Positions 751 through 36,445 of a DNA stretch of 48,504 nucleotides are shown piece after piece. The stretch's first letter is position 1, and the number at the start of each line of letters is the position of its first letter. The position numbers and the translations under genes are program-made. The stretch comes from Mycobacteriales bacterium (lineage in GTDB: Bacteria > Actinomycetota > Actinomycetes > Mycobacteriales > DASULA01). The DNA lies in the NCBI GenBank assembly GCA_036278435.1, contig DASULA010000489.1, forward strand, positions 1-48,504. The letters run 5' to 3'. Under the pieces are notes generated by a model that was given only the letters and a program-made list of their open reading frames with translations, searched no databases and had not been told where the DNA came from.

Positions 751-2085
751 GTGTCCGGGGACACCGTGCTCGTGCTGACCGCCCCGGACGACCCAACCGC
801 TGACCTGGTAGTCCGAGAACTGGGACGGCGCGACACTACGGTGTTCCGCGCGGACCTCGCCTGGTTCCCCACTCGACTCACCATGACGGCGCGGGCAGGC
901 GGACCGTGGACCGGTGTCCTCCGCCTGCCCGACCGGGCCGTTCGGCTCCGCGACATCATCTCCGTCTACTACCGACGCCCCAACTCCTACGCGCTGTCCG
1001 CAGTCCTGTCCGAAGGCGACCGAGCGTGGGCGGACACCGAGGCACGCCACGGGCTGGGCGGTGTTCTCACCGCCCTGGACTGTCTGTGGTTGCCCGACCC
1101 GGTCACAGCCGCCCGAGCCGAGTTGAAACCTGTGCAGCTCGCCGCCGCTGCACAGGTAGGACTCCACATACCCGATACCCTCATCACCAACGATCCGACC
1201 GAGGCGGCGGACTTCGTCGCCTCCCAGCCCGGCGGCGCGGTGTACAAACCGCTGTTCGGACGGCCCACCACCCACGACGGGCAGCCCGAGTCGCTGTACA
1301 CCACCACGGTCACGACCGATGCGATCACCCCGGCCGTCGCCTACACCGCCCACATGTTCCAAGCCAAGGTGCCCAAGGCGTACGTGCTGGTCGGCCAGGC
1401 CCGTGATCGGCTCGCCGCGATCGGCTACCGCCCGACGCTGGTTGCAGCCGACGGCCTGGCCGGATGGCCGGACGGCGCGCCCTACGACCGGATCCTCGGC
1501 ACCTGTTCCACCCGCCGGGTCCCAGCCGCGTGGCTGGCCCAGATCCGCGCCGGCGGGATGATCGTCGCCAACGTAGGGCAGGGTGTTGTGCCTCTGCGGG
1601 TCGATGCCGGCGGCTCGGCGTCCGGCTGGTTCCTGCCCGGCCCGGCGTCGTTCATCGAAGCCCGGCCCGCGGACGCACCCGACGGCATGCCCTTCGACGC
1701 GGCGGTCGATCTCGTCTACGCGCAGGGGGACAGCACCCGGTCTGCCGATCCGTTGGTGGGGATTGGCGATGAGGCTTTCTGGTTCGTCGTTCACGTCGTC
1801 ATGCCGGGCCACGTCTGGTTCGAACTACACGAGGACGACAACACGACATACTGCCTGGTCGACCCGATGACCCGATCCTGGTACCGGGCGACCCGGGCTG
1901 CTGATCGGATGACGGTCACCCAGGCCGGCTCCCGGCGGGTCTGGGACGACCTGGCCGCGATCCACGTCCGATGGGAGGCGGCCAACCACCCCTCCCATGA
2001 CCGACTCGGCCTGACCGTCACCCCCGCCGGCAGGCACACCCTGTGGGTTGACGAACCCGGCCGCCGCGCGTGGACGCTGGTCTGA
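751..2085 (+). pseudogene. chimeric ORF: N-terminal about 210 aa of an ATP-grasp RiPP maturase fused in frame to the C-terminal about 235 aa of a PIMT-like O-methyltransferase (probable internal deletion)
   Basis: The N-terminus MSGDTVLVLTAPDDPTADLVV...YKPL...HMFQAKVPKAY looks like a SAV_5884-type ATP-grasp. It then switches abruptly at about nt 1383 to ...LVGQARDRLAAIGYRPTLVAADGLAGWPDGAPYDRILGTC...IRAGGMIV (PIMT motifs II/III). No glycine-rich SAM motif I and no ATP-grasp C-terminal subdomain are present. Confidence 0.5.
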
Positions 2086-15267: not shown

Positions 15268-16689
15268 TCAGGTGGGCAGCAGAGTCCGCACGAACTCGGT
15301 GAGCTGGGCGGCGTTGCGGCACTCGACCATCTCCACCTGACGGCCGTACTCGGTGGCCGCCGAGTCACCGGATCCCCACATCCGGCGGGGCTCGGGGTTC
15401 AGCCAGTACGCGTGCCGGGCCCGGCCGACCAGCCGGCGCAGCGTGGGCAGACCGGTGGGCCGGTAGTTGTTCCGCCCGTCGCCGAGGATCAGCAGCGACG
15501 TCCTCGGCCCGACCGCGTCGGGCCAGCGCTCGTCGAACACCTCGAAGGCATGCCCGTAGTCGCTGTGCCCGTCGAACCACACCAGGTCGGCGTCCCGGGA
15601 AATCCGGCTCACCGCGTCGGCGAGGTCGGCGCCCGGCGCGAACAGCCTGGTGACCTCGTCGCAGGTGTCCACGAACGCGAACGCCCGGACCCGGCTGAAC
15701 TGGTCCCGCAGCGCCGCGGTGAGCATCAGGGTGAAGTGCGCGAATCCGGCCACCGAGCCGCTGACGTCGCAGAGCACCACCAGTTCCGGCTTGTGCGTGC
15801 GGCGCGGCCGGTGCCGAGTCACCACCGGCACGCCGCCGGTGCTCAGCGAGGCGCGCACGGTGCGGCGGAAGTCCAACCGCCCGGCCCGGCCCACCCGGCG
15901 GCGGGCGGCCAGCCGGGCGGCCAGCCGCCGGGCCAGTGGCCGCACGGTCCGGCGCAGTTCGGTCAGGTCCGCGCGTTGGGCGCGCAGGAAGTCCACCTGG
16001 TCGGCCAGTGGGCTGACCGCGGTGCGCGACACCCGCTCGACGCCGCGCTCCTCGGCCGCCCGGCGGCGCACCTCGGCCTCCACGTAGGAGCGGAACGCGG
16101 CGACGCGCTCGGCGATCATCCGCCGGGCCACCTGCTCGGCCATGCCGCCGCGGTCGGCGCCGGCCAGCAGCGCGTCGAGCAGGGACGCGACCAGCGTGTC
16201 GGGGTTGAGCGCGCGCAGCACCCGGTAGCTGAACCACGACTGCCGGGCCGGGTCGGCCTCGGCCCGGCCCACCGCCGACACAGCGAACCGGGCGAACCGC
16301 CGCAGCGCGTCCAGGTCCCCGTCCAGCAGGAGTCCGCGGAGGATCTCCCGGAGTGCGTCGGGGTCGGCGGCACCGGGGCGCGGCGGTTCGGTGCCGTCAC
16401 CGGTACCGTCGCCGGGCTCGAAGCCGGCCAGCACCCCGTCGCCGAGCAGCGGCGGCCACCACAGGTCGAACAGGGTGTCGAAGGTGGGCCGGTACACCGG
16501 CCGCTTCACCAGGGTGGCAGCCAGCCCGGCCCGCAGTTGTTCCCGGTCGAGCAGGTCCACCGCGCCGAACGCGCGCACCGCGTCCAGGTTCTCGCTCACC
16601 CCGACCGGCAGGCCGGCCTCCCGCAGCGCGCCGACGAACCCCTCCACCCGCCCCAGCAGCCCCCCGGCCACCTCCGCCTGTCCGACCAT
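15268..16689 (-). CDS. VWA domain-containing CoxE-like protein (MoxR partner)
   Basis: N-terminus [30 protein letters not shown]... C-terminal VWA with ...[10 protein letters not shown]... (MIDAS DxSxS). Confidence 0.8.
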
Positions 16690-17205
16690 CCGCCACCGCC
16701 GCCCGTCACCGTGCCGCTCCAGTCGCTGGTGCGGTCCTCACGGTAATCGGCTGGACCTCCCACCGGCCACCCGCGACGATGGTCCGATGACGTGGACAGC
16801 ACCCGAGGTCACCCGAGTCGACGAGCCGTTCACCGGAGACGAGCGGGCGACGCTGGAGGGCTTCCTGGAGTGGCAGCGCGGCACCCTGTTGGCCAAGTGC
16901 ACCGGGCTGACCGGCGCGCAACTGGCCGAGCCGGCGGTCCCCCCGTCGAACCTGTCACTGCTCGGCCTGGTCCGGCACATGACCGAGGTGGAGCGCTCCT
17001 GGTTCCGCCGCCGGGTGGCCGGCGAGACGATCGGGCGCCACTACGTGAGCGAGGACCGGCCGGACGCCGACTTCACCGACGCCGACCCCGAGCGGGCCGA
17101 GGCGGACTTCGCCCGGTTCACCGCGGAGTGCGACGCGGCCCGCCGGGCCGTGGCCGATCTGCCACTGGACCACGTGTTCACCCACGACCGGTGGGGCCGG
17201 ATGTC

Positions 17206-17380
17206 GCGCTGGGTGTTCAACCACTTGACTTCCTCCCACCGGCTAAAGGCGGGGGATTCCGCCCCTCGCGGGGGGATCTTCCTGCTTCGCCGCCGACTGC
17301 CCTCGCGGCTCGTGCCGTTTGGGTCTTACGTCTGCTCCACAGGCGAGGACCGCCAGCCCGGCGGCTTTGATCGTGATCGC
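17206..17380 (-). ncRNA. predicted TnpB omega RNA (reRNA) scaffold plus about 20-nt guide derived from the flanking DinB sequence
   Basis: Position only. The tnpB stop lies about 15-18 nt from the right end, and the terminal region carries GC-rich hairpins (e.g. CCCC-TCGC-GGGG at 17262-17273). No covariance model could be run. Confidence 0.3.
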
Positions 17381-18538
17381 GGCGTTGTGATCCCGGTCGA
17401 GGACCGCGCCGCACCCGGGACACGTCCACTCCCGGGCGGCCAGCGGCAGGGAGTCCACCACGACCCAGCAGTCCGAACAGGTCTTCGACGACGGGAACCA
17501 GCGGTCCACGACCACCAGATTCCGCCCGTACCAGTCGGCCTTGTATTCCAGCATCGTGCGGAGCTGTCGCCACGCGGCGTCGGAGATCGCCCGGGCAAGG
17601 GAGTGGTTGCGGACCATGTTGGTCACGGTCAGGTCCTCGATCACGACCGTTTGGTTTTCGCGGACGAGTCGAGTCGTGAGCTTGTGCAAATGGTCCCGGC
17701 GGCGGTCGGCGATCCTGGCGTGCACCCGGGCAACCTTCACCCGGGCCTTCGCCCGGTTCGCCGAGCCCTTGGCTTTGCCAGACAGCCGGCGTTGAGCGAG
17801 CACGAGCCGTTCCCGGTCCCGGCGTTCGTGCCGGGGGTTGGCGATCTTCTCCCCCGTGGACAAGGTGATCAGCGAGGTGATCCCGGCGTCCACACCCACC
17901 ACCGAATCGGTCGGCGGACCGTCATGCACGGTGTCGTCGCACAGCAGGGACACGAACCACCGGCCCGCACTGTCCCGGGACGCGGTCGCTGTCGACGGCT
18001 GGGCGCCGTCGGGCAGCGGCCGGGACCAGATGATGTCCAACGGCTGCGACATCTTCGCCAGAGTGAGCCGGCCATCCCGGAAAGTGAATCCCGAGCGGGT
18101 GTACTCCGCGGACTGGCCGGACCGCTTCCGGGACTTGAACCGCGGGTACCGGGCGCGCTTGGCAAAGAAGTTGGAGAACGCCGTCTGAAGGTGCCGCAAC
18201 GCCTGCTGCAACGGAACCGAGGACACCTCGGAGAGGAACGCCAACTCCTCGGTCTTCTTCCACCCGGTCAACGCCGCCGAGGACTCCACGTAGGACACCC
18301 GGCGGTGTTCGCCGTACCAGGCGGCGGTGCGTTCGGCGAGGGCCTTGTTGTAGACGAGCCGGACGCACCCGAACGTGCGGGACAGCTCCGCAGCCTGGGA
18401 ATCGGTGGGGTAGAAGCGATACTTGAACGCCCGCTTCACTACCCGACCCACGCTCCACATTCTACCGGATCTACTGTGAGAGGGGGAAGCGGCGTTTTCC
18501 TCACCCGTGTGAACGCGGGCGTATCCACGCCGCGAATC
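17226..18538 (-). mobile_element. IS200/IS605-family, tnpB-only (IS1341-like) element, 1313 bp; junctions ambiguous by 3 nt (TGA on the + strand)
   Basis: Single TnpB ORF with no tnpA. No target-site duplication beyond the 3-nt ambiguity. GC-rich imperfect palindromes at both ends. Precise interruption of the DinB ORF. Confidence 0.8.
17243..18460 (-). CDS. tnpB: TnpB RNA-guided endonuclease (OrfB_IS605 plus Zn ribbon)
   Basis: ...KRAFKYRFYPT... The RuvC triad is recognisable (GVDAGI, VIEDL, DRDHNAA), with CSDC...CPGC. Start uncertain (ATG 18460, GTG 18451 or 18442). A TAGAAT -10-like hexamer at 18459-18464 would favour a leaderless GTG start. Confidence 0.85.
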   Translation of the reverse strand: MWSVGRVVKRAFKYRFYPTDSQAAELSRTFGCVRLVYNKALAERTAAWYGEHRRVSYVESSAALTGWKKTEELAFLSEVSSVPLQQALRHLQTAFSNFFAKRARYPRFKSRKRSGQSAEYTRSGFTFRDGRLTLAKMSQPLDIIWSRPLPDGAQPSTATASRDSAGRWFVSLLCDDTVHDGPPTDSVVGVDAGITSLITLSTGEKIANPRHERRDRERLVLAQRRLSGKAKGSANRAKARVKVARVHARIADRRRDHLHKLTTRLVRENQTVVIEDLTVTNMVRNHSLARAISDAAWRQLRTMLEYKADWYGRNLVVVDRWFPSSKTCSDCWVVVDSLPLAAREWTCPGCGAVLDRDHNAAITIKAAGLAVLACGADVRPKRHEPRGQSAAKQEDPPARGGIPRL

Positions 18539-18625
18539 TGATGAGCGAGGAATACGCCCGGCACCTCGGCCACGCCGAGCTGCTCCGCGAACGCCTCGAC
18601 GGCACCACCGGCTCCTGACCACACC

Positions 18626-18943
18626 TCAGCGCGATGAGCCCCCTCCCTCGACGCCGAGTTCCGCCCAGACCTTCCCAGCCGGAACGGTCGCAGCCCCGGC
18701 CCGCACCTCCGCGAGCGCGGCGTCGGCCGCCGCGACATCGGCGGCGTCCTCGGCGTCCTGGAGCACCCGGTCAACCAGAGCACGCACGGTCGCCTTCGTC
18801 ACCGGATCACCGCCGGAGACTCCAACCCACAGCCGCCGGCAGGTCTCGGCGATCGCATCCTCCCGGACCCGCGCCTCGTCCGCAGTGGCACCGGACGACC
18901 AAGGCGCGGAGTCGGTAGCGGACGTGTCGGCCGCGGGGGTCAT
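18626..18943 (-). CDS. hypothetical acidic Ala-rich protein (105 aa) with an antitoxin-like C-terminus
   Basis: ORF 18626..18943. ...AEDAADVAAADAALAEVRAGAATVPAGKVWAELGV... resembles the C-terminal tails of Phd/YefM- or RelB-type antitoxins (from memory). ATG 18943 overlaps the upstream stop (ATGA). Confidence 0.5.
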   Translation of the reverse strand: MTPAADTSATDSAPWSSGATADEARVREDAIAETCRRLWVGVSGGDPVTKATVRALVDRVLQDAEDAADVAAADAALAEVRAGAATVPAGKVWAELGVEGGGSSR

Positions 18944-20364: not shown

Positions 20365-21864
20365 ATGCACGGATTCCAGAACCGGGGGCTGGACGTGCCC
20401 CGGGGCAGCAACCCGCCCACCGGCCGGTTCGGCCGGATGTTTCCCACTCTCCAACCACGCCGCCCAACCGGACTCGGGCCCGCCGAGGCACTCGGGCTTC
20501 CCGGCGGGAAGATGGACGGTGGCCTGACCACCGACGCCCAGGGCAATCCCACGATGGACGCGGGTCTCACCTTCTTCGGCCAGTTCATCGACCACAACAT
20601 CAGTTTCGACCCGACCACCGTGCTGGGCCGGCAGATCGACCCCGAGGCGGTCCGGGACTTCCGCCCACCCCGGTTGGACATGGACAACCTCTACGGGTCC
20701 GGCCCGACCGTCATGCCCTACATCTACGATGCGCCGTCCCACTACACGAAGCTGACCCTCGCACCGGACGGTGTGGACCTGGCCCGCACCGCCGACGGCA
20801 CGGCGCTGATCGGCGACCCGCGCAACGACGAGAACATGATCCTGGCGCAACTGCACCTGGCGTTCATCAAGTTCCACAACCATGTGGTCGACGCCCTGCG
20901 GGCCGGCACGATCACCGACGTGTTCGGCAACCGGATCCCGGCCGAGCCGCCGCCGCCCGCCGGGCAGCCCGCCGGCACCGGCCTGGACGGCCTGCTGGCG
21001 TTACAGGACTACTACCACGACGTGCTGGCCGCCGCTCAGCAACTCGTGCGCTGGCACTTCCAGTGGATCGTGCTGCACGAGGTGCTGCCGGCGTTCACAG
21101 GCCGGAAGATCATCGAGGACATCGAACAGCACGGTCTCCAGTTCTTCACCCCGGCCGGCGCGCCGTTCGTGCCGGTGGAGTTCGCGGTCGCGGCGTTCCG
21201 GATCGGACACCCGACGGTGCGTTCGGACTACGTGGTGAACCCGTCGTTCTCCGCGCCGATCTTCCCGGTCGATCCGGACGCGCCGGCGGACCCCCGGTCC
21301 GACCTGCGCGGCGGGCCGGTCACCGCCGAGTTCGCGGTCGACTGGTCGAACTTCTTCCGGACCGGCCGGCACGGCAGCCCGCAGCGGGCCCGCCGGATGC
21401 TCGCGTCGCTGAACATCAGGCTGCTCACCCTGCCGGTCAGTGCGGTTCCCGGCTCCACTCCCGGCGACCTGGCCCGGCCGCTCAGCTCACTCGCGGTGCG
21501 CAACCTGCTCCGCGGTGAGACCCAGGAGCTGCCCTCCGGGCAGGACGTGGCCCGCAAGATTGGCGAGGTGCCGCTCAGCGACACCGAGCTGGGCACGCAG
21601 GGGCCGGCCCACCTGTGGTACTACGTGCTCAGGGAGGCCGAGGTGCGCCAGCACGGCGAGCACCTCGGGCCGGTGGGCGCGCGGATCGTGGCCGAGGTGC
21701 TGCTCGGGCTGCTGGATGCCGACCCGCTCAGCTACCGCTCGACCTACCCGGCCTGGACACCAACCCTCGGCGGGAAGGACGGGTTCGGCGTCGCCGACCT
21801 GCTCCGGTTCGCCGGGGTGCTCCCCGACCACGCCGACGCGCCGATCAGCGCCGCCGCGTCGTAA
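20365..21864 (+). CDS. animal-type heme peroxidase family protein
   Basis: ...GRFGRMFP...LTFFGQFIDHNISFD...GDPRNDENMILAQLHLAFIKFHNHVV...RIGHPTVR... is the typical An_peroxidase pattern. GAGGGG lies upstream of the ATG. Confidence 0.8.
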   Translation: MHGFQNRGLDVPRGSNPPTGRFGRMFPTLQPRRPTGLGPAEALGLPGGKMDGGLTTDAQGNPTMDAGLTFFGQFIDHNISFDPTTVLGRQIDPEAVRDFRPPRLDMDNLYGSGPTVMPYIYDAPSHYTKLTLAPDGVDLARTADGTALIGDPRNDENMILAQLHLAFIKFHNHVVDALRAGTITDVFGNRIPAEPPPPAGQPAGTGLDGLLALQDYYHDVLAAAQQLVRWHFQWIVLHEVLPAFTGRKIIEDIEQHGLQFFTPAGAPFVPVEFAVAAFRIGHPTVRSDYVVNPSFSAPIFPVDPDAPADPRSDLRGGPVTAEFAVDWSNFFRTGRHGSPQRARRMLASLNIRLLTLPVSAVPGSTPGDLARPLSSLAVRNLLRGETQELPSGQDVARKIGEVPLSDTELGTQGPAHLWYYVLREAEVRQHGEHLGPVGARIVAEVLLGLLDADPLSYRSTYPAWTPTLGGKDGFGVADLLRFAGVLPDHADAPISAAAS

Positions 21865-31644: not shown

Positions 31645-32582
31645 AGCGCCCCAGCGTAGGCCGTGCCGGGCGCCCGCGCCCGGCCGAGTCAGGGCCGCCC
31701 CCAGCCGGTGTCCCGCCGGGCCGCTGCCGCCGGCCGGTAACCGGGCCGCAACGACCTCGCCAAGCGCCCACAGCGCTCAGCCTGCTATCGCGCCTGAGCA
31801 GCGGCAGCCCTTTCGTCCAGCTCGGCAACGCCGTCGATGCCGCGCAGGGCGACGAGGCGTGCCCGCATGTCAGTCAGGGCGTCTTCGATCCGGACCGATC
31901 GCACCCCGCTGGCGCAGTCGAGGAAGTCGTCCCAGACAGCCAAAACTCGCACCGCCATTCCCTGACCTACGAGTACGTTCGCGGTCGACTCGACACCGGG
32001 TACCGGCGAGTATGGCGTAGCGCTCGTACCGGGCTTCCAGTGCCGGACGGTTACGCGTGGGTGGGGCGACGCGCCGTCCTGGCTCGGCACGGCTTCTACG
32101 ACGCGAGCGTGATCGGTGGGGGACCCGGGAGTTCGCGCTGACCGCCCTTGGAGACCTCGACACGCTTGCCGGGTGTAGGCCGCGAACGCCCGCCCAGATG
32201 AACCATGTGATGGCATGGGCCACCCCGTTCGCCGCCGACGTCGCCGGTCAGTTGGGCGTCAGCGTCGGTGCTGCGTACCACCTGTGGCATGGATCGTTGT
32301 GCGACCGCCGACATGGCCTGCGACACCGTGAATTCCGGATGTTCGATTTCGATCCGACCACCGATATTGCCCAGGATGAGTCGCGCTGTTGGAGCGTGGT
32401 CGTCGCCAAAGGCACAGATGCACGCATGGAGGATTATGCGAAACCCTGATTGTTGATGGTCGGTGGATCGCTGTCGAATGTCGGGAGAGCAGGCGGTACG
32501 CGGTATCAGGTAATTGACAACACCGTCGGGTTCACTCGTACAGGTGATCAAACAGTAGTGCCGTCGATGTAGAATTGGTGGC

Positions 32583-33866
32583 ATGGATGCCCTGACCTGT
32601 TCGATTCCCCACACCGATACCGGTGTTGGTGTGGAATCAGGTAGCGGGGTTCCGGTTACCGGATTCGACCCTGTTGAGGTAGCTGGATTACTTTCCGGGT
32701 TCGACCCGTCGGGTTTGGACGCGGATTCGTTGTTGACGGTGTTGGCCGGGTTGGAACGGATAGTGGCCGCCGCGCACGCCGCGCAGGTCACGGCGTTGGC
32801 CGAGTTCACCCGCCTTCGCCCGCCCAGCCCGGGTCGTCGGTTCGGGGAGTTCGTAGCCGATGAGGTCGCGGTGGAACTGGGTCTGACTCGGCGGGTGGCG
32901 GAGAACCGGGTCGCCCAGGCGGTGGAGATGACCACCCGCGTCCCCGCCGTGCTGGCCGCCCTGCGAACCGGGGTGGTGGATCTGTACCGGGCGAAGGTGA
33001 TCACCGATGCCACCTACCGGTTGGACGAGGTGACCGCCGCGCAGGTCGCCGACCAGGTGGTCGACCGGGTGCAGGGGCGTAACGCCTGGCAGGTGCGTGA
33101 CCTGGTGCGCCGCACCGTCCTGCGACTCGACCCCGCCGGTGCCAGACGCCGACACGAACGGGCCCGTACCGACCGCAACGTGATCCTCACCCCACTCGAC
33201 GACGGGATGGCCGAACTGGTCGCCCTGCTGCCGGCCGAGCAGGCCACCGCGGTCTACCAGCGGGTCGACGCCCTCGCCCGAGCCAGGCGGGTTCCCGGGG
33301 ATGAGCGGGGTACCGACGCGCGGCGGGCCGACGTGTTCGTCAATCTGCTCCTGGGGCGTCGCGACGCTGGTGTGACCAGTGAACCCGGGGTACGGCCGTT
33401 GGTACACGTCACCGTGGCCGCCTCCACCCTCACCGGCGCCAACAACAACCCCGCAGTATTGGACGGCTACGGACCGATCTCCGCGGCGTACGCACGGGCG
33501 ATCGCCGCGGATCCCACCGGAACATGGAAACGGCTGGTCACCGACCCGGTGGACGGGTCACTGGTGGAACACTCACCGAACACCTACCGGCCACCGGTCG
33601 CACTCGATAACTTCATCCGCGCACGGGACCGCACCTGTCGGTTTCCTGGCTGCCAACACCCCGCTCAACACGCGGATTTGGACCACACGATCCCCTGGCC
33701 CAAAGGACCCACCACGCAGGGCAACCTCGGCGCACTCTGCCGCCACCACCACCGCCTCAAACACCAAACACCCTGGCAACTCACCCAAACCAACGGACAA
33801 TTCCACTGGACCAGCCCAACCAGACGCCGATACACCACCGGACCCGAAAACCACGACCCACCATAA
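32583..33866 (+). CDS. DUF222 / HNH endonuclease family protein (13E12-repeat-like)
   Basis: N-terminal DUF222-like helical region. C-terminus ...RDRTCRFPGCQHPAQHADLDHTIPWPKGPTTQGNLGALCRHHHRLKH... Confidence 0.8.
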   Translation: MDALTCSIPHTDTGVGVESGSGVPVTGFDPVEVAGLLSGFDPSGLDADSLLTVLAGLERIVAAAHAAQVTALAEFTRLRPPSPGRRFGEFVADEVAVELGLTRRVAENRVAQAVEMTTRVPAVLAALRTGVVDLYRAKVITDATYRLDEVTAAQVADQVVDRVQGRNAWQVRDLVRRTVLRLDPAGARRRHERARTDRNVILTPLDDGMAELVALLPAEQATAVYQRVDALARARRVPGDERGTDARRADVFVNLLLGRRDAGVTSEPGVRPLVHVTVAASTLTGANNNPAVLDGYGPISAAYARAIAADPTGTWKRLVTDPVDGSLVEHSPNTYRPPVALDNFIRARDRTCRFPGCQHPAQHADLDHTIPWPKGPTTQGNLGALCRHHHRLKHQTPWQLTQTNGQFHWTSPTRRRYTTGPENHDPP

Positions 33867-34262
33867 CAACCACCCCACACCAAGACATGTCACACAACCC
33901 CCGACCCGCCCTGGTCGGGTAGATCCGACATGCCAAAGTCAACCACCGTCACCCGGACCAGACGACAACACGCCACCCCCGGCACGGTCACTACCTGCAC
34001 CACACGCCACGTCTATTCGCGGCGGCGGAGGCAGCAGGGGTTGGGTTCACCGTCCGCGGCCACAGTTTTGACATCCTGGGCCGCCACGGAACCGAACTGC
34101 CCCGTTGGACTGAGTCGACCCAGTGACGATCACGGTTGCTAGATCTGTGCCAACAGGATAGCCTCCGTACTGTGACTCGCCGCTATTGGTAGTTTAGTGT
34201 GCCGGCCCTGGTTGGGCATGGCCGTTTCCCCATGTAGACGGTCACGTACCCCCAGAGCCGGC

Positions 34263-34298
34263 AAGAGGCAGAGGTTCACCCTCTGCCTCTTCACTTTT
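34263..34298 (+). terminator. intrinsic terminator / possible attenuator: AAGAGGCAGAGG-TTCAC-CCTCTGCCTCTT then CACTTTTCC
   Basis: Perfect 12-bp stem plus a T4 tract read directly, 44 nt upstream of the DAHP synthase pseudogene ATG. Confidence 0.5.
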
Positions 34299-34341
34299 CC
34301 GCCATCAAGCGGTCCGGCTCATAGCGTCCGGGCTGGAAAGG

Positions 34342-35285
34342 ATGACCGTGTCCGAGACACCCCAGACGCACGACCAACGCATCCGCCAGATTCGCCCGCT
34401 CGTCTCCCCGGGGGCTGCTCCGGGACCAGCTCCCGCTGACTCCCGAGCTTGCCGAAACTGTGCTCGGCGGTAGGCGCGCGGTCCACGATGTCATGACCCG
34501 TGCCGACGATCGCATGCTTGTTATCGTCGGTCCATGTTCGGTGCATGACCCAGCGGCGGCGCTGGACTATGCCGGTCGGCTCGCGGAACTCGCCCGGACG
34601 CTGGTCGGCGACCTGGTAGTGGTGATGCGGGCCTACTTCGAGAAGCCGCGCACCACGCTGGGTTGGAAAGGGCTGATCAACGACCCCCACCTGGACGACA
34701 GTGGTGACGTCAACACCGGCCTTACCATGGCCCGCCGGTCGGGATCAAGAATTGGACCGATGGCGGTGTGCAGGCAGCCGTTGACGCGGTCCGCGTCGCC
34801 GCCGCACCGCACGTGTTCACGGGTGTGACGGAACACGGAGTCCCTGCCATCTACAGCACCGAAGGCAATCCCGACTGCCACATCGTCCTGCGTGGCGGAG
34901 GCGGCCGGACCAACTACGGCGCCGATTCGGTCGCCGGCGCGCTGGGGCTGCTGCGCGACGCTGGGCAACCTGAACGGGTTGTGATCGATGTCAGCCACGA
35001 CAACAGCGGCAAGGATCACCGCAAGCAACCCGCGGTCGCCGCGGCGGTGGCCGCCCAGGTGCGGCGGGCCAGCACGGCATCATCGGCGCGCTGCTGGAGA
35101 GCTTCCTGGTGGAGGATCGCCAAGACCTCGTCCCTGGGCAACCGTTGCGCTATGGCCAGAGCATCACGGACGCCTGCATGAGCTGGGACACCACGCGGGA
35201 CGTGCTCGGCAACCTCGCCGAAGCCGTACGTAGCCGACGGGACCCAGCCCCGGCTGTCCTCGCCATGATCGGATCGGCCAGGTAG
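34342..35285 (+). pseudogene. class I (AroG/F/H-type) DAHP synthase, disrupted by two frameshifts and an internal deletion
   Basis: Three frames carry consecutive DAHPS segments. Frame 1: MTVSETPQTHDQRIRQIRPLVSP. Frame 2: LLRDQLPLTPE...VIVGPCSVHDP...MRAYFEKPRTTLGWKGLINDPHLD...GLTMARR. Back in the first frame: PVGIKNWTDGGVQAAVDAVR...HIVLRGG...VIDVSHDNSGKD. Third frame: HGIIGALLESFLVEDRQ...YGQSITDACMSWDTT... Confidence 0.8.
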
Positions 35286-35290
35286 CCGAC

Positions 35291-36445
35291 TCAGGCGGTG
35301 CCGGCGTCGCGGGCGCGCATGTGCACGTTGAGGAGCAGGCCGACCGCGATCCAGTTGGCGAACATCGACGAGCCACCGTAGGAGACAAACGGCAGCGGGA
35401 GGCCGGTGACCGGCATGATGCCCAGCGTCATGCCGATGTTGACGAAGCTCTGGAACGCCCACCAGGACGCCACCCCGGAGGCGACCATCCGGCCGAACAT
35501 GTCCGGCGAGCGACCGGCGAGTCGCAGCGTGCGCCAGAGCATGACACCGAACAGCAGGATGATCGCGCCCGCGCCGAGGAACCCCAGTTCCTCACCGGCG
35601 ACGGTGAACACGAAGTCCGTCTGCTGTTCGGGGACGAACTTGCCGTTGGTCTGGGTGCCCTTGAACAGCCCGGTGCCGGTCAGGCCACCGGACCCGATCG
35701 CGATCCGGGCCTGGGTGATGTTGTAGGCCAAGCCCTGGGTGTTCTGGTTCGGGTTGGTGAACGCCTTGAACCGGTCGATCTGGTACTGCTGGAGCAGGTG
35801 CAACTGCACCACCGCGATGCCCACCAGCACCCCGGCGGCCAGCATCCCGAGGAACCAGCGCCCGGACACCCCGGCCACCGCGAACATGCCGAGGATCACG
35901 AACACGAAGACCATGGCGGTGCCCACGTCTGGTTGCAGCAGGATCAGCGCCATCGGCACCGCCGCCAGCCCCAGCGCGAGCGGCACGTCCGCCCCGGGAC
36001 GGGAGTCCTCCCGCGAACCGCGTTCGGCGAACAGCAGCGCCAGGCCCACGATCAGGGCGACCTTGGCGAACTCCGACGGCTGCACCTGGAATCCGCCGCC
36101 GAGCACGATCCACGAATGCGCGCCGTTGATGGTGCTGCCGACCAGCAGCACCCCGATCAGGCCCAGGCACGAGGCGACGTACATGACCGGCGTGTAGACC
36201 CGGAGCTTGCGGTAGTCCACCAGTGAGACCAACCCGCCGATCACCAGGCCGATCACCAGGTTGAGCAGGTGCCGCTTGAGGTAGGACGTCGGGTCCTGGC
36301 CGGCATCGAGCAACCGCGGTCTGGTCGCCGACCAGACCAGCACCGAACCGAGCAGCGACAGACACAGCGGGGTGCCCAGCAACACCCAGTCCACCCGCCG
36401 CCAGTAGCTCACCCGCTCGCGGGCGAGCGGCGCGACCCCGATCAT
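35291..36445 (-). CDS. rodA: rod shape-determining SEDS glycosyltransferase RodA (FtsW/RodA/SpoVE family)
   Basis: 10-TM SEDS pattern (...GAHSWIVLGGGFQVQPSEFAKVALIV..., ...PVTGLPLPFVSYGGSS...). ATG 36445 forms an ATGA overlap with the mrdA stop. Confidence 0.85.
   Translation of the reverse strand: MIGVAPLARERVSYWRRVDWVLLGTPLCLSLLGSVLVWSATRPRLLDAGQDPTSYLKRHLLNLVIGLVIGGLVSLVDYRKLRVYTPVMYVASCLGLIGVLLVGSTINGAHSWIVLGGGFQVQPSEFAKVALIVGLALLFAERGSREDSRPGADVPLALGLAAVPMALILLQPDVGTAMVFVFVILGMFAVAGVSGRWFLGMLAAGVLVGIAVVQLHLLQQYQIDRFKAFTNPNQNTQGLAYNITQARIAIGSGGLTGTGLFKGTQTNGKFVPEQQTDFVFTVAGEELGFLGAGAIILLFGVMLWRTLRLAGRSPDMFGRMVASGVASWWAFQSFVNIGMTLGIMPVTGLPLPFVSYGGSSMFANWIAVGLLLNVHMRARDAGTA

Follow-up and report, generated by a model that had tools for sequence, protein, structure and literature searches.

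How precisely can the ends of a mobile element be placed in the gene that it interrupts when a single copy is at hand, and does that copy still encode a working RNA-guided nuclease? These questions are raised by a locus in contig DASULA010000489.1 of a Mycobacteriales bacterium (assembly GCA_036278435.1), analyzed here over its whole length of 48,504 nt (the window). We consider it highly probable that positions 17225–18540 hold a 1316-bp, non-autonomous element of the IS200/IS605 type, read on the minus strand, which lies 3' of a TCAT tetranucleotide, splits a gene of the mycothiol-S-transferase (MST)/DinB family, and carries an apparently intact TnpB together with its omega-RNA. The element contains tnpB as its only gene and belongs to the corresponding insertion sequence (IS) group, IS1341, as defined previously (PMC9956272). 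A preliminary description of the locus had recognized a tnpB-only IS200/IS605-family element within this gene, an identity that comparison with relatives supports; the ends that it assigned require correction.

The interrupted gene and the ends of the element

16787–17224, plus strand: 5' fragment of the split MST/DinB-family gene, codons 1–146, ending RWVFNH (Pfam PF04978 match of the joined product; alignment with 15 homologs)
17225–18540, minus strand: whole tnpB-only IS200/IS605-type (IS1341-group) element, 1316 bp (conserved ends of relatives; in-frame join consistent with homologs)
17225–17228, minus strand: right-end terminal motif TCAA, the presumed right cleavage site (74 aligned right ends)
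18461–18540, minus strand: left end, 80 nt, beginning CAGATTCGCGGCG, with a subterminal hairpin at ~18502–18521 nested within 18489–18533 and without an outward Shine-Dalgarno (SD)-like motif
18541–18544, minus strand: target site and predicted transposon-adjacent motif (TAM) TCAT; on the plus strand ATGA, the Met147 codon and the first base of the Ser codon
18541–18618, plus strand: 3' fragment of the split MST/DinB gene, codons 147–171 and stop, encoding the 25-residue C-terminus

The plus-strand open reading frame (ORF) from ATG 16787 translates as MTWTAPEVTRVDEPFTGDERATLEGF...RWVFNH. The preliminary description had assigned it to the N-terminal part of a DinB-like protein and 18541–18618 to the C-terminus of a DUF664 protein, and had taken the two for parts of one gene. 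These assignments are borne out, as the joined product matches the full length of Pfam PF04978 (MST, formerly DUF664; 1–149 of 149, E-value 1.6e-40) and also matches DinB_2. Excision of 17225–18540 yields ...TTC AAC CAC/ATG AGC GAG GAA TAC... (a slash marks a junction here and below), which is translated as FNH/MSEEY within an in-frame ORF of 171 codons. The spacing around this join was counted in the 120 best homologs, 106 of which fitted the test pattern. The His is followed by two residues and then EEY (H-x-x-E-E-Y) in 104 of the 106, and by three residues in none. The CAC/ATG join has this two-residue spacing, regains a conserved Met, and leaves no insertion or deletion at the junction. 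CAC ATG also stands at the junction position in two homologous genes, P0001 and P0002, and is followed by A in the former. These are comparisons at the level of paralogs, since P0002 and a third homolog, P0003, sit in unrelated gene neighborhoods and the contig of P0001 is only 1.3 kb long.

Four histidines of the host protein (H64, H146, H155, and H158) are invariant in the alignment with 15 homologs (A1) and are contiguous in one ORF once the insert is removed. The element splits the gene between His146 and Met147, and because this separates the conserved H64 and H146 from H155 and H158, the gene is very probably inactivated. Its two halves had been called undecayed, which does not hold entirely. 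At 17189–17200 the gene reads GRMS-RW, as compared to xMSLRW in nearly all of the ~106 homologs, and the near-invariant motif (S)L-RW has thus lost its Leu to an in-frame deletion of one codon, located seven codons before the junction. This deletion is either specific to the lineage or early decay of the interrupted gene. The plus strand also contains an open frame of 716 codons (16391–18541), which begins upstream of the MST start, traverses all of the element in antisense orientation to tnpB, and has its stop codon at 18539–18541. This frame probably reflects the scarcity of stop codons in high-GC antisense frames. The truncated MST, if still translated, would carry a junk tail of ~440 amino acids.

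The ends of the element were placed by comparison with 80 loci encoding TnpB relatives (69–76% identity) in Streptomyces, Actinomadura, Spirillospora, and related genomes, all of which are tnpB-only elements of ~1.3–1.45 kb. The right-end alignment consists of 74 sequences, those of 73 relatives and the window copy. The right ends of the relatives terminate in ...GGAGGAAG(T/C)CAA and then diverge, with a near-invariant consensus of ...GAATCCCCCGCCTTTAGGCGGGGGAGGAAGTCAA. The terminal CAA is present in all 74 (as TCAA in 91% and CCAA in 9%), and the base that follows is A, C, G, or T without preference. In the window the right end reads ...GGGAGGAAGTCAA/GTGGTTGAACACC. The plus-strand TTG at 17225–17227, which the preliminary description had translated as Leu147 of the host protein, corresponds to the closing CAA of this right end (...GTCAA) read on the opposite strand; it belongs to the element, because every right end finishes in CAA before a variable base. 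On the left, TCAT/C(G/A)G... is found in ~70 of the 80 loci, 12–20 nt before a conserved block composed of GTGGATAC, a hairpin, and AGGAAACG, and the flanks upstream of TCAT are unrelated among loci. In a single genome, two copies (L010 and L024) have the same sequence from TCATCTAAAG on and different sequences before it. The left end of the window copy reads CTCGCTCAT/CAGATTCGCGGCGTGGATACGCCCGCGTTCACACGGGTGAGGAAAACG.

The element has no terminal inverted repeats, its left start CAGATTCGCGG and right finish GGAGGAAGTCAA not being reverse complements. The absence of a target-site duplication, proposed earlier, is confirmed by the flanks (...CTCAT and GTGGTT...). The tetranucleotide that closes the right end, TCAA, is related to the target TCAT. 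Subterminal hairpins occur at the left (GCCCGCG-TTCACA-CGGGTG) and right (CCCCCGCC-TTTAG-CCGGTGGG, ~17231–17256) ends and are conserved with covariation among the relatives, and both end motifs and both hairpins of the window copy agree with the family consensus. The evidence for the hairpins is the family alignment, as neither end, folded as DNA on its own, does better than shuffled sequences (z of -1.2 and -0.9). The GC content of the element is 67% (measured on 17228–18540), as compared to 71% for the window. Just 5' of the hairpins on the minus strand are the tetranucleotides GATA(C) (18524–18529) at the left and GAAT(C) (17257–17262) at the right. GATA and GAAT differ in parallel with TCAT (the TAM) and TCAA (the right end), as would be expected if they were IS608-style internal DNA guides through which TnpA recognizes its cleavage sites; by analogy, the two may base-pair with TCAT and TCAA.

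The preliminary description had instead drawn an element of 1313 bp (17228–18540, or 17226–18538 in an alternative register), with the join CAC TTG ATG AGC, a host product of 172 codons, a TAM ending in TCA (...CATCA), a right end of GTCA, and AGTGGTTGAACACCCA as the target. That join is in frame and its product has a full-length PF04978 match, the presence of TGA at both junctions makes the register look ambiguous from the window alone, and 172 amino acids is the length of many homologs. The agreement in length, however, is due solely to the upstream Leu codon being missing from the host gene as well. The longer product has an extra residue right at the junction (HLMSEEY, as compared to the consensus HMI-EEY in the alignment with 15 homologs), which corresponds to the three-residue spacing seen in no homolog, and its boundaries leave outside the element the TTG that the 74 right ends assign to it. 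The ends of the relatives differ in part from those first proposed, in that the right end is GTCAA rather than GTCA or GT and the left flank is TCAT, C being the first base of the element. We therefore judge the 1313-bp version to be improbable. Another join, CAC TTG AGC (171 amino acids, element 17228–18543), was rejected, as its right end would finish in GT, its left flank would be CTCA, and the conserved Met would become Leu. The earlier claim that the empty site is reconstructable with single-nucleotide precision holds with the 1316-bp boundaries, at a junction 3 nt away from the one proposed. The predicted junction is GGGTGTTCAACCAC/ATGAGCGAGGAATAC, joined as CACATGAGC; the 1313-bp boundaries would give CACTTGATGAGC. 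The 3-nt shift in register alters three predictions (empty site, TAM, and guide), and the target is corrected to GTGGTTGAACACCCAG.

TnpB and its predicted omega-RNA

17243–18460, minus strand: tnpB coding sequence, 405 amino acids from ATG 18460 or, more likely, 402 amino acids from GTG 18451; stop codon at 17243–17245
17225–17365, minus strand: putative omega-RNA scaffold of ~140 nt, overlapping the 3' end of tnpB, stopping at the right end, and including the right-end hairpin
17209–17224, minus strand: predicted guide-encoding flank GTGGTTGAACACCCAG, the 16 nt 3' of the right end, positioned according to the established TnpB/omega-RNA architecture (PMC8612924; 10.1101/2023.03.14.532601)

The single credible gene in the insert is the antisense tnpB noted previously, whose ~1.2 kb fill the 1316-bp element. 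The protein has the Pfam domains HTH_OrfB_IS605 (PF12323), OrfB_IS605 (PF01385), and Cas12f1-like_TNB (PF07282), and scores 375 bits against the NCBIfam model IS200_TnpB, 362 bits against guided_TnpB (cutoff 100), and 215 bits against IS607_TnpB. Residues 8–374 align to structures of ISDra2 TnpB (8h1j and 8exa; E-value 1e-71). The RuvC motifs GVD(191)AGI, VIE(275)DL, and D(355)RD(357)HNAA lie opposite those of ISDra2, and the CxxC..CxxC zinc ribbon is kept (Cys 328, 331, 347, and 350; all in the 405-residue numbering). The catalytic triad and zinc ribbon are thus present as first reported, without substitution of catalytic residues. Among 5.8 billion proteins, the closest other TnpB is 77–78% identical, and the sole 100% match comes from the contig of the window itself. 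Exact-sequence look-ups of TnpB with either start codon and of a neighboring VWA protein found nothing on record. The start codon is probably GTG 18451 and not ATG 18460, because the resulting MGRVVKRAF fits the MARQVKRAF starts of relatives as well as a database call (P0121). A TAGAAT hexamer is located 7 nt upstream of GTG 18451; it would fit a leaderless transcript, a notion that is unsupported.

The right ends also encode a conserved RNA structure. The RNAalifold consensus, calculated from a 220-nt alignment of the 74 right ends, has 47 base pairs, 13 of which have compensatory double changes. In the non-coding-RNA part, which accounts for 35 pairs, 98.6% of cells are paired, and double changes occur in 72 cells versus 8.6 in shuffled alignments. 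None of 500 shuffles reached any of the observed measures of pairing or covariation, and moving the partners by 1–3 columns lowered pairing to 35–64%. The window copy retains 32 of the 35 consensus pairs. This structured RNA is, judging from its covariation, the expected omega-RNA scaffold. By analogy with known systems, the guide is predicted to be GUGGUUGAACACCCAG (17224–17209). Within the window, matches to it at up to three mismatches are limited to the native flank.

In characterized systems, the guide is transcribed from the right-end flank and TnpB targets the donor joint, in which the TAM abuts this flank, thereby biasing inheritance toward retention of the element; tnpB elements are mostly without tnpA and require TnpA in trans (PMC8612924; 10.1101/2023.03.14.532601). 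By analogy, the element described here would have inserted by single-strand peel-and-paste directly 3' of TCAT, which corresponds to an internal ATGA of the host gene. A Y1 TnpA supplied in trans would excise the top strand and rejoin the flanks without a scar. The guide GUGGUUGAACACCCAG would be appended to the omega-RNA by a transcript extending into the flank, and the TnpB–omega-RNA complex would then cut the scarless donor joint TCAT/GTGGTTGAACACCCAG, which is the restored, intact MST allele. Cleavage of the donor joint would favor retention of the element by recombination.

Placement of related elements at gene starts

Empty sites were reconstructed for 63 relatives, and the ATG(A) of the TAM in each was classified by coding signal, with the other ATGA sites in the same flanks serving as controls. 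Two classifiers were used, based on 90 or 120 nt of upstream sequence, and their figures differ slightly. By the 90-nt classifier, 73% of relatives lie at a start-like ATGA, with an in-frame coding signal downstream and none upstream, as compared to 16% of 1272 controls. A start-like ATGA combined with a host SD at -17 to -8 was seen in 62% of relatives and 4.6% of controls (Fisher p of 5e-32). By the 120-nt classifier, stop/start overlaps account for 24% of relatives versus 0.7% of controls, and simple starts (no upstream coding signal in either frame) for 49% versus 16.5%. Internal Met codons make up 3% of relatives and 21% of controls by both classifiers. In 62 of 64 elements, the outermost ~15 nt of the left end include an outward SD-like motif (CGAAGGAGnCCCG/ATGA), which in relatives lies 9–13 nt from the host ATG. 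On the Streptomyces plasmid NZ_CP108007.1 (L085, 1327–1330 and 2711–2715), the PGAP start of rfbB coincides with the CAT of the flanking TCAT, and the PGAP stop of the upstream thymidylyltransferase gene coincides with the TCA within the right-end GTCAA. These coincidences imply that the right-end TTGA restores the upstream stop and that the left end supplies an SD to the downstream gene.

The window element is an atypical, intragenic insertion for its clade, and is exceptional in two respects: its target was an internal ATGA, and the SD-like motif is missing from its left end, as in L034 and L043. We tentatively propose, as a serious possibility, that the clade has adapted to settling within the ATGA syntax of host genes. 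TCAT, read on the other strand, is ATGA, a start codon that often lies in the stop/start overlap of coupled genes; TCAA (TTGA) would regenerate the TGA stop upstream, and the left end would supply the SD, enabling insertion between ribosome-binding site and start codon at little cost; the window copy would be an SD-less variant in a rare, gene-destroying ATGA. Survivorship of harmless insertions could also account for much of the site bias. In the literature, for which coverage was incomplete, no paper was found that links TnpB, TAM, and TCAT or that describes SD-bearing left ends. If the proposal is true, this would be a selfish RNA-guided element that minimizes its cost by mimicking translation signals.

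Alternative explanations, genomic context, and known systems

Several results weigh against the preferred reading, a 1316-bp insertion with an apparently intact TnpB and an omega-RNA. An uninterrupted allele of the host gene was searched for and not found, the closest MST/DinB homolog being 73% identical and non-syntenic, and a degenerate empty-site pattern that allowed both 0-nt and 3-nt spacings was absent from metagenome contigs. With no true empty site, the join rests on the family ends and the spacing in homologs, and the ends of the window copy are taken from relatives with 69–78% protein identity. The 100% TCAT in the left-end logo is circular because the automated search pattern demanded TCAT, and so the visual reading of the loci was used as evidence in place of the logo. 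The window contains no second copy of the element, and no further copy was found in any collection searched. A scan of the whole window with Rfam gave no family at the gathering threshold, and a sigma-70 scan of 17100–18700 gave no consensus promoter. There is no tnpA inside the element, as the preliminary description had stated, nor among the called genes of the 48.5-kb contig, and the element may be immobile. By these called genes (holA, comEC, leuS, proB, obg, the gene for RNase E, the gene for PBP2, mreBCD, ndk, and valS), the contig is core chromosome.

Some of these observations suit a dead relic, that is, an element that is correctly delimited but has ceased to move or function, in a genome without a cognate TnpA, with TnpB or omega-RNA unexpressed or inactive, and with an ORF left intact by chance or by the short time since inactivation. 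The single copy without a close relative among 5.8 billion proteins, the missing tnpA and promoter consensus, and the three of 35 omega-RNA consensus pairs that are unpaired in this copy would all fit, as would the host codon deletion, which could mean that the insertion is not very recent. Yet the 402–405 codons form an open frame, the catalytic and zinc-binding residues are all present along with 32 of 35 scaffold pairs, the end motifs and hairpins fit the family consensus, and the search for tnpA covers this contig and not the rest of the genome. We regard a dead relic as unlikely, though far from negligible. For the window copy, the recent insertion and active nuclease suggested earlier remain only plausible, because neither an uninterrupted allele nor a second copy was found in the collections searched.

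Chimeric assembly, with reads joined over a repeated IS, would fit a window that is an entire metagenome-assembled contig of 48,504 bp without a match on record elsewhere, as expected of such assemblies. A chimera would not, however, yield flanks from the same gene, in the same frame and correct order, with both junctions exactly at the TCAT and GTCAA boundaries of the family, and repeats usually break contigs rather than insert precisely. An assembly artifact is thus exceedingly improbable. Hardly more credible is a domesticated or IS607-type TnpB, such as a nuclease-dead RNA-guided regulator or the partner of a serine recombinase. The gene does stand alone without a transposase, and it matches IS607_TnpB at 215 bits, but this model is outscored by IS200_TnpB (375 bits) and by guided_TnpB (362 bits), the D-E-D residues are preserved, and subterminal hairpins with TCAT and TCAA are typical of Y1-mobilized elements. 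Dozens of relatives at different loci also share the same ends, which makes this a mobile clade. What the window contains is a real, well-delimited, but ordinary tnpB-only IS insertion of a known family.

Its value is modest, namely a tnpB-only example that is exact to the nucleotide, in which the predicted TAM (TCAT), the terminal motif (TCAA), the omega-RNA scaffold, and the native guide are all specified. These parts are what would be needed for testing a new actinomycete TnpB as a compact genome editor in high-GC hosts. The locus also illustrates that junctions read from one copy can err by 3 nt where the TAM and the right-end motif share bases.

Other features of the window were noted. 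The interrupted MST gene is bracketed by a pair encoding a MoxR-type AAA ATPase and a VWA (CoxE-like) protein. Adjoining this pair, 20365–21864 (plus strand) encodes a 499-amino acid protein with an animal-heme-peroxidase domain (PF03098, E-value 1e-11). The region 31800–35400 has a GC content of 62–67%, versus 71% for the window, and few genes supported by GC content at third codon positions; it contains a DUF222-domain protein (32583–33866, plus strand, E-value 1.4e-28) and may be another foreign or mobile segment. DUF222 is often associated with HNH endonucleases in actinomycetes. The ORF at 751–2085 (plus strand) combines an MvdD-type pre-ATP-grasp domain (residues 5–114) with a PCMT protein-L-isoaspartate O-methyltransferase domain (212–277). 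This pairing is reminiscent of tailoring enzymes for graspetide-type ribosomally synthesized and post-translationally modified peptides, and the ORF call may merge two genes.

The element resembles several known systems. As in IS608 of Helicobacter pylori, insertion is 3' of a tetranucleotide, the right end is TCAA, and hairpins lie ~20 nt inside the left and ~10 nt inside the right boundary; the target is TTAC in IS608 as compared to TCAT here, and the window element is without TnpA. IS608 is the mechanistic model of peel-and-paste transposition by Y1 TnpA. With ISDra2 of Deinococcus radiodurans (8h1j, 8exa, and 8bf8; PMC8612924 and PMC10097598) it shares a near full-length alignment of TnpB, the same D-E-D residues and zinc ribbon, and a guide RNA scaffold that overlaps the 3' end of tnpB and finishes at the right end. 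ISDra2 differs in having tnpA and the TAM TTGAT, whereas the window element has no tnpA, an inferred TAM of TCAT, and only predicted activity. Like other members of the IS1341 group (ISfinder; PMC9956272), the element consists of a single tnpB between left and right ends, with no tnpA, inverted repeats, or target duplication, and its 1316 bp fall within the 1252–1393 bp class. No other protein in the collection, however, exceeds 78% identity to its TnpB. The ISGst elements of Geobacillus stearothermophilus (10.1101/2023.03.14.532601) are likewise non-autonomous and tnpB-only, keep their ends, tnpB, and omega-RNA, and encode a TnpB that targets the donor joint. They come from another host phylum, have another TAM, and have been tested experimentally.

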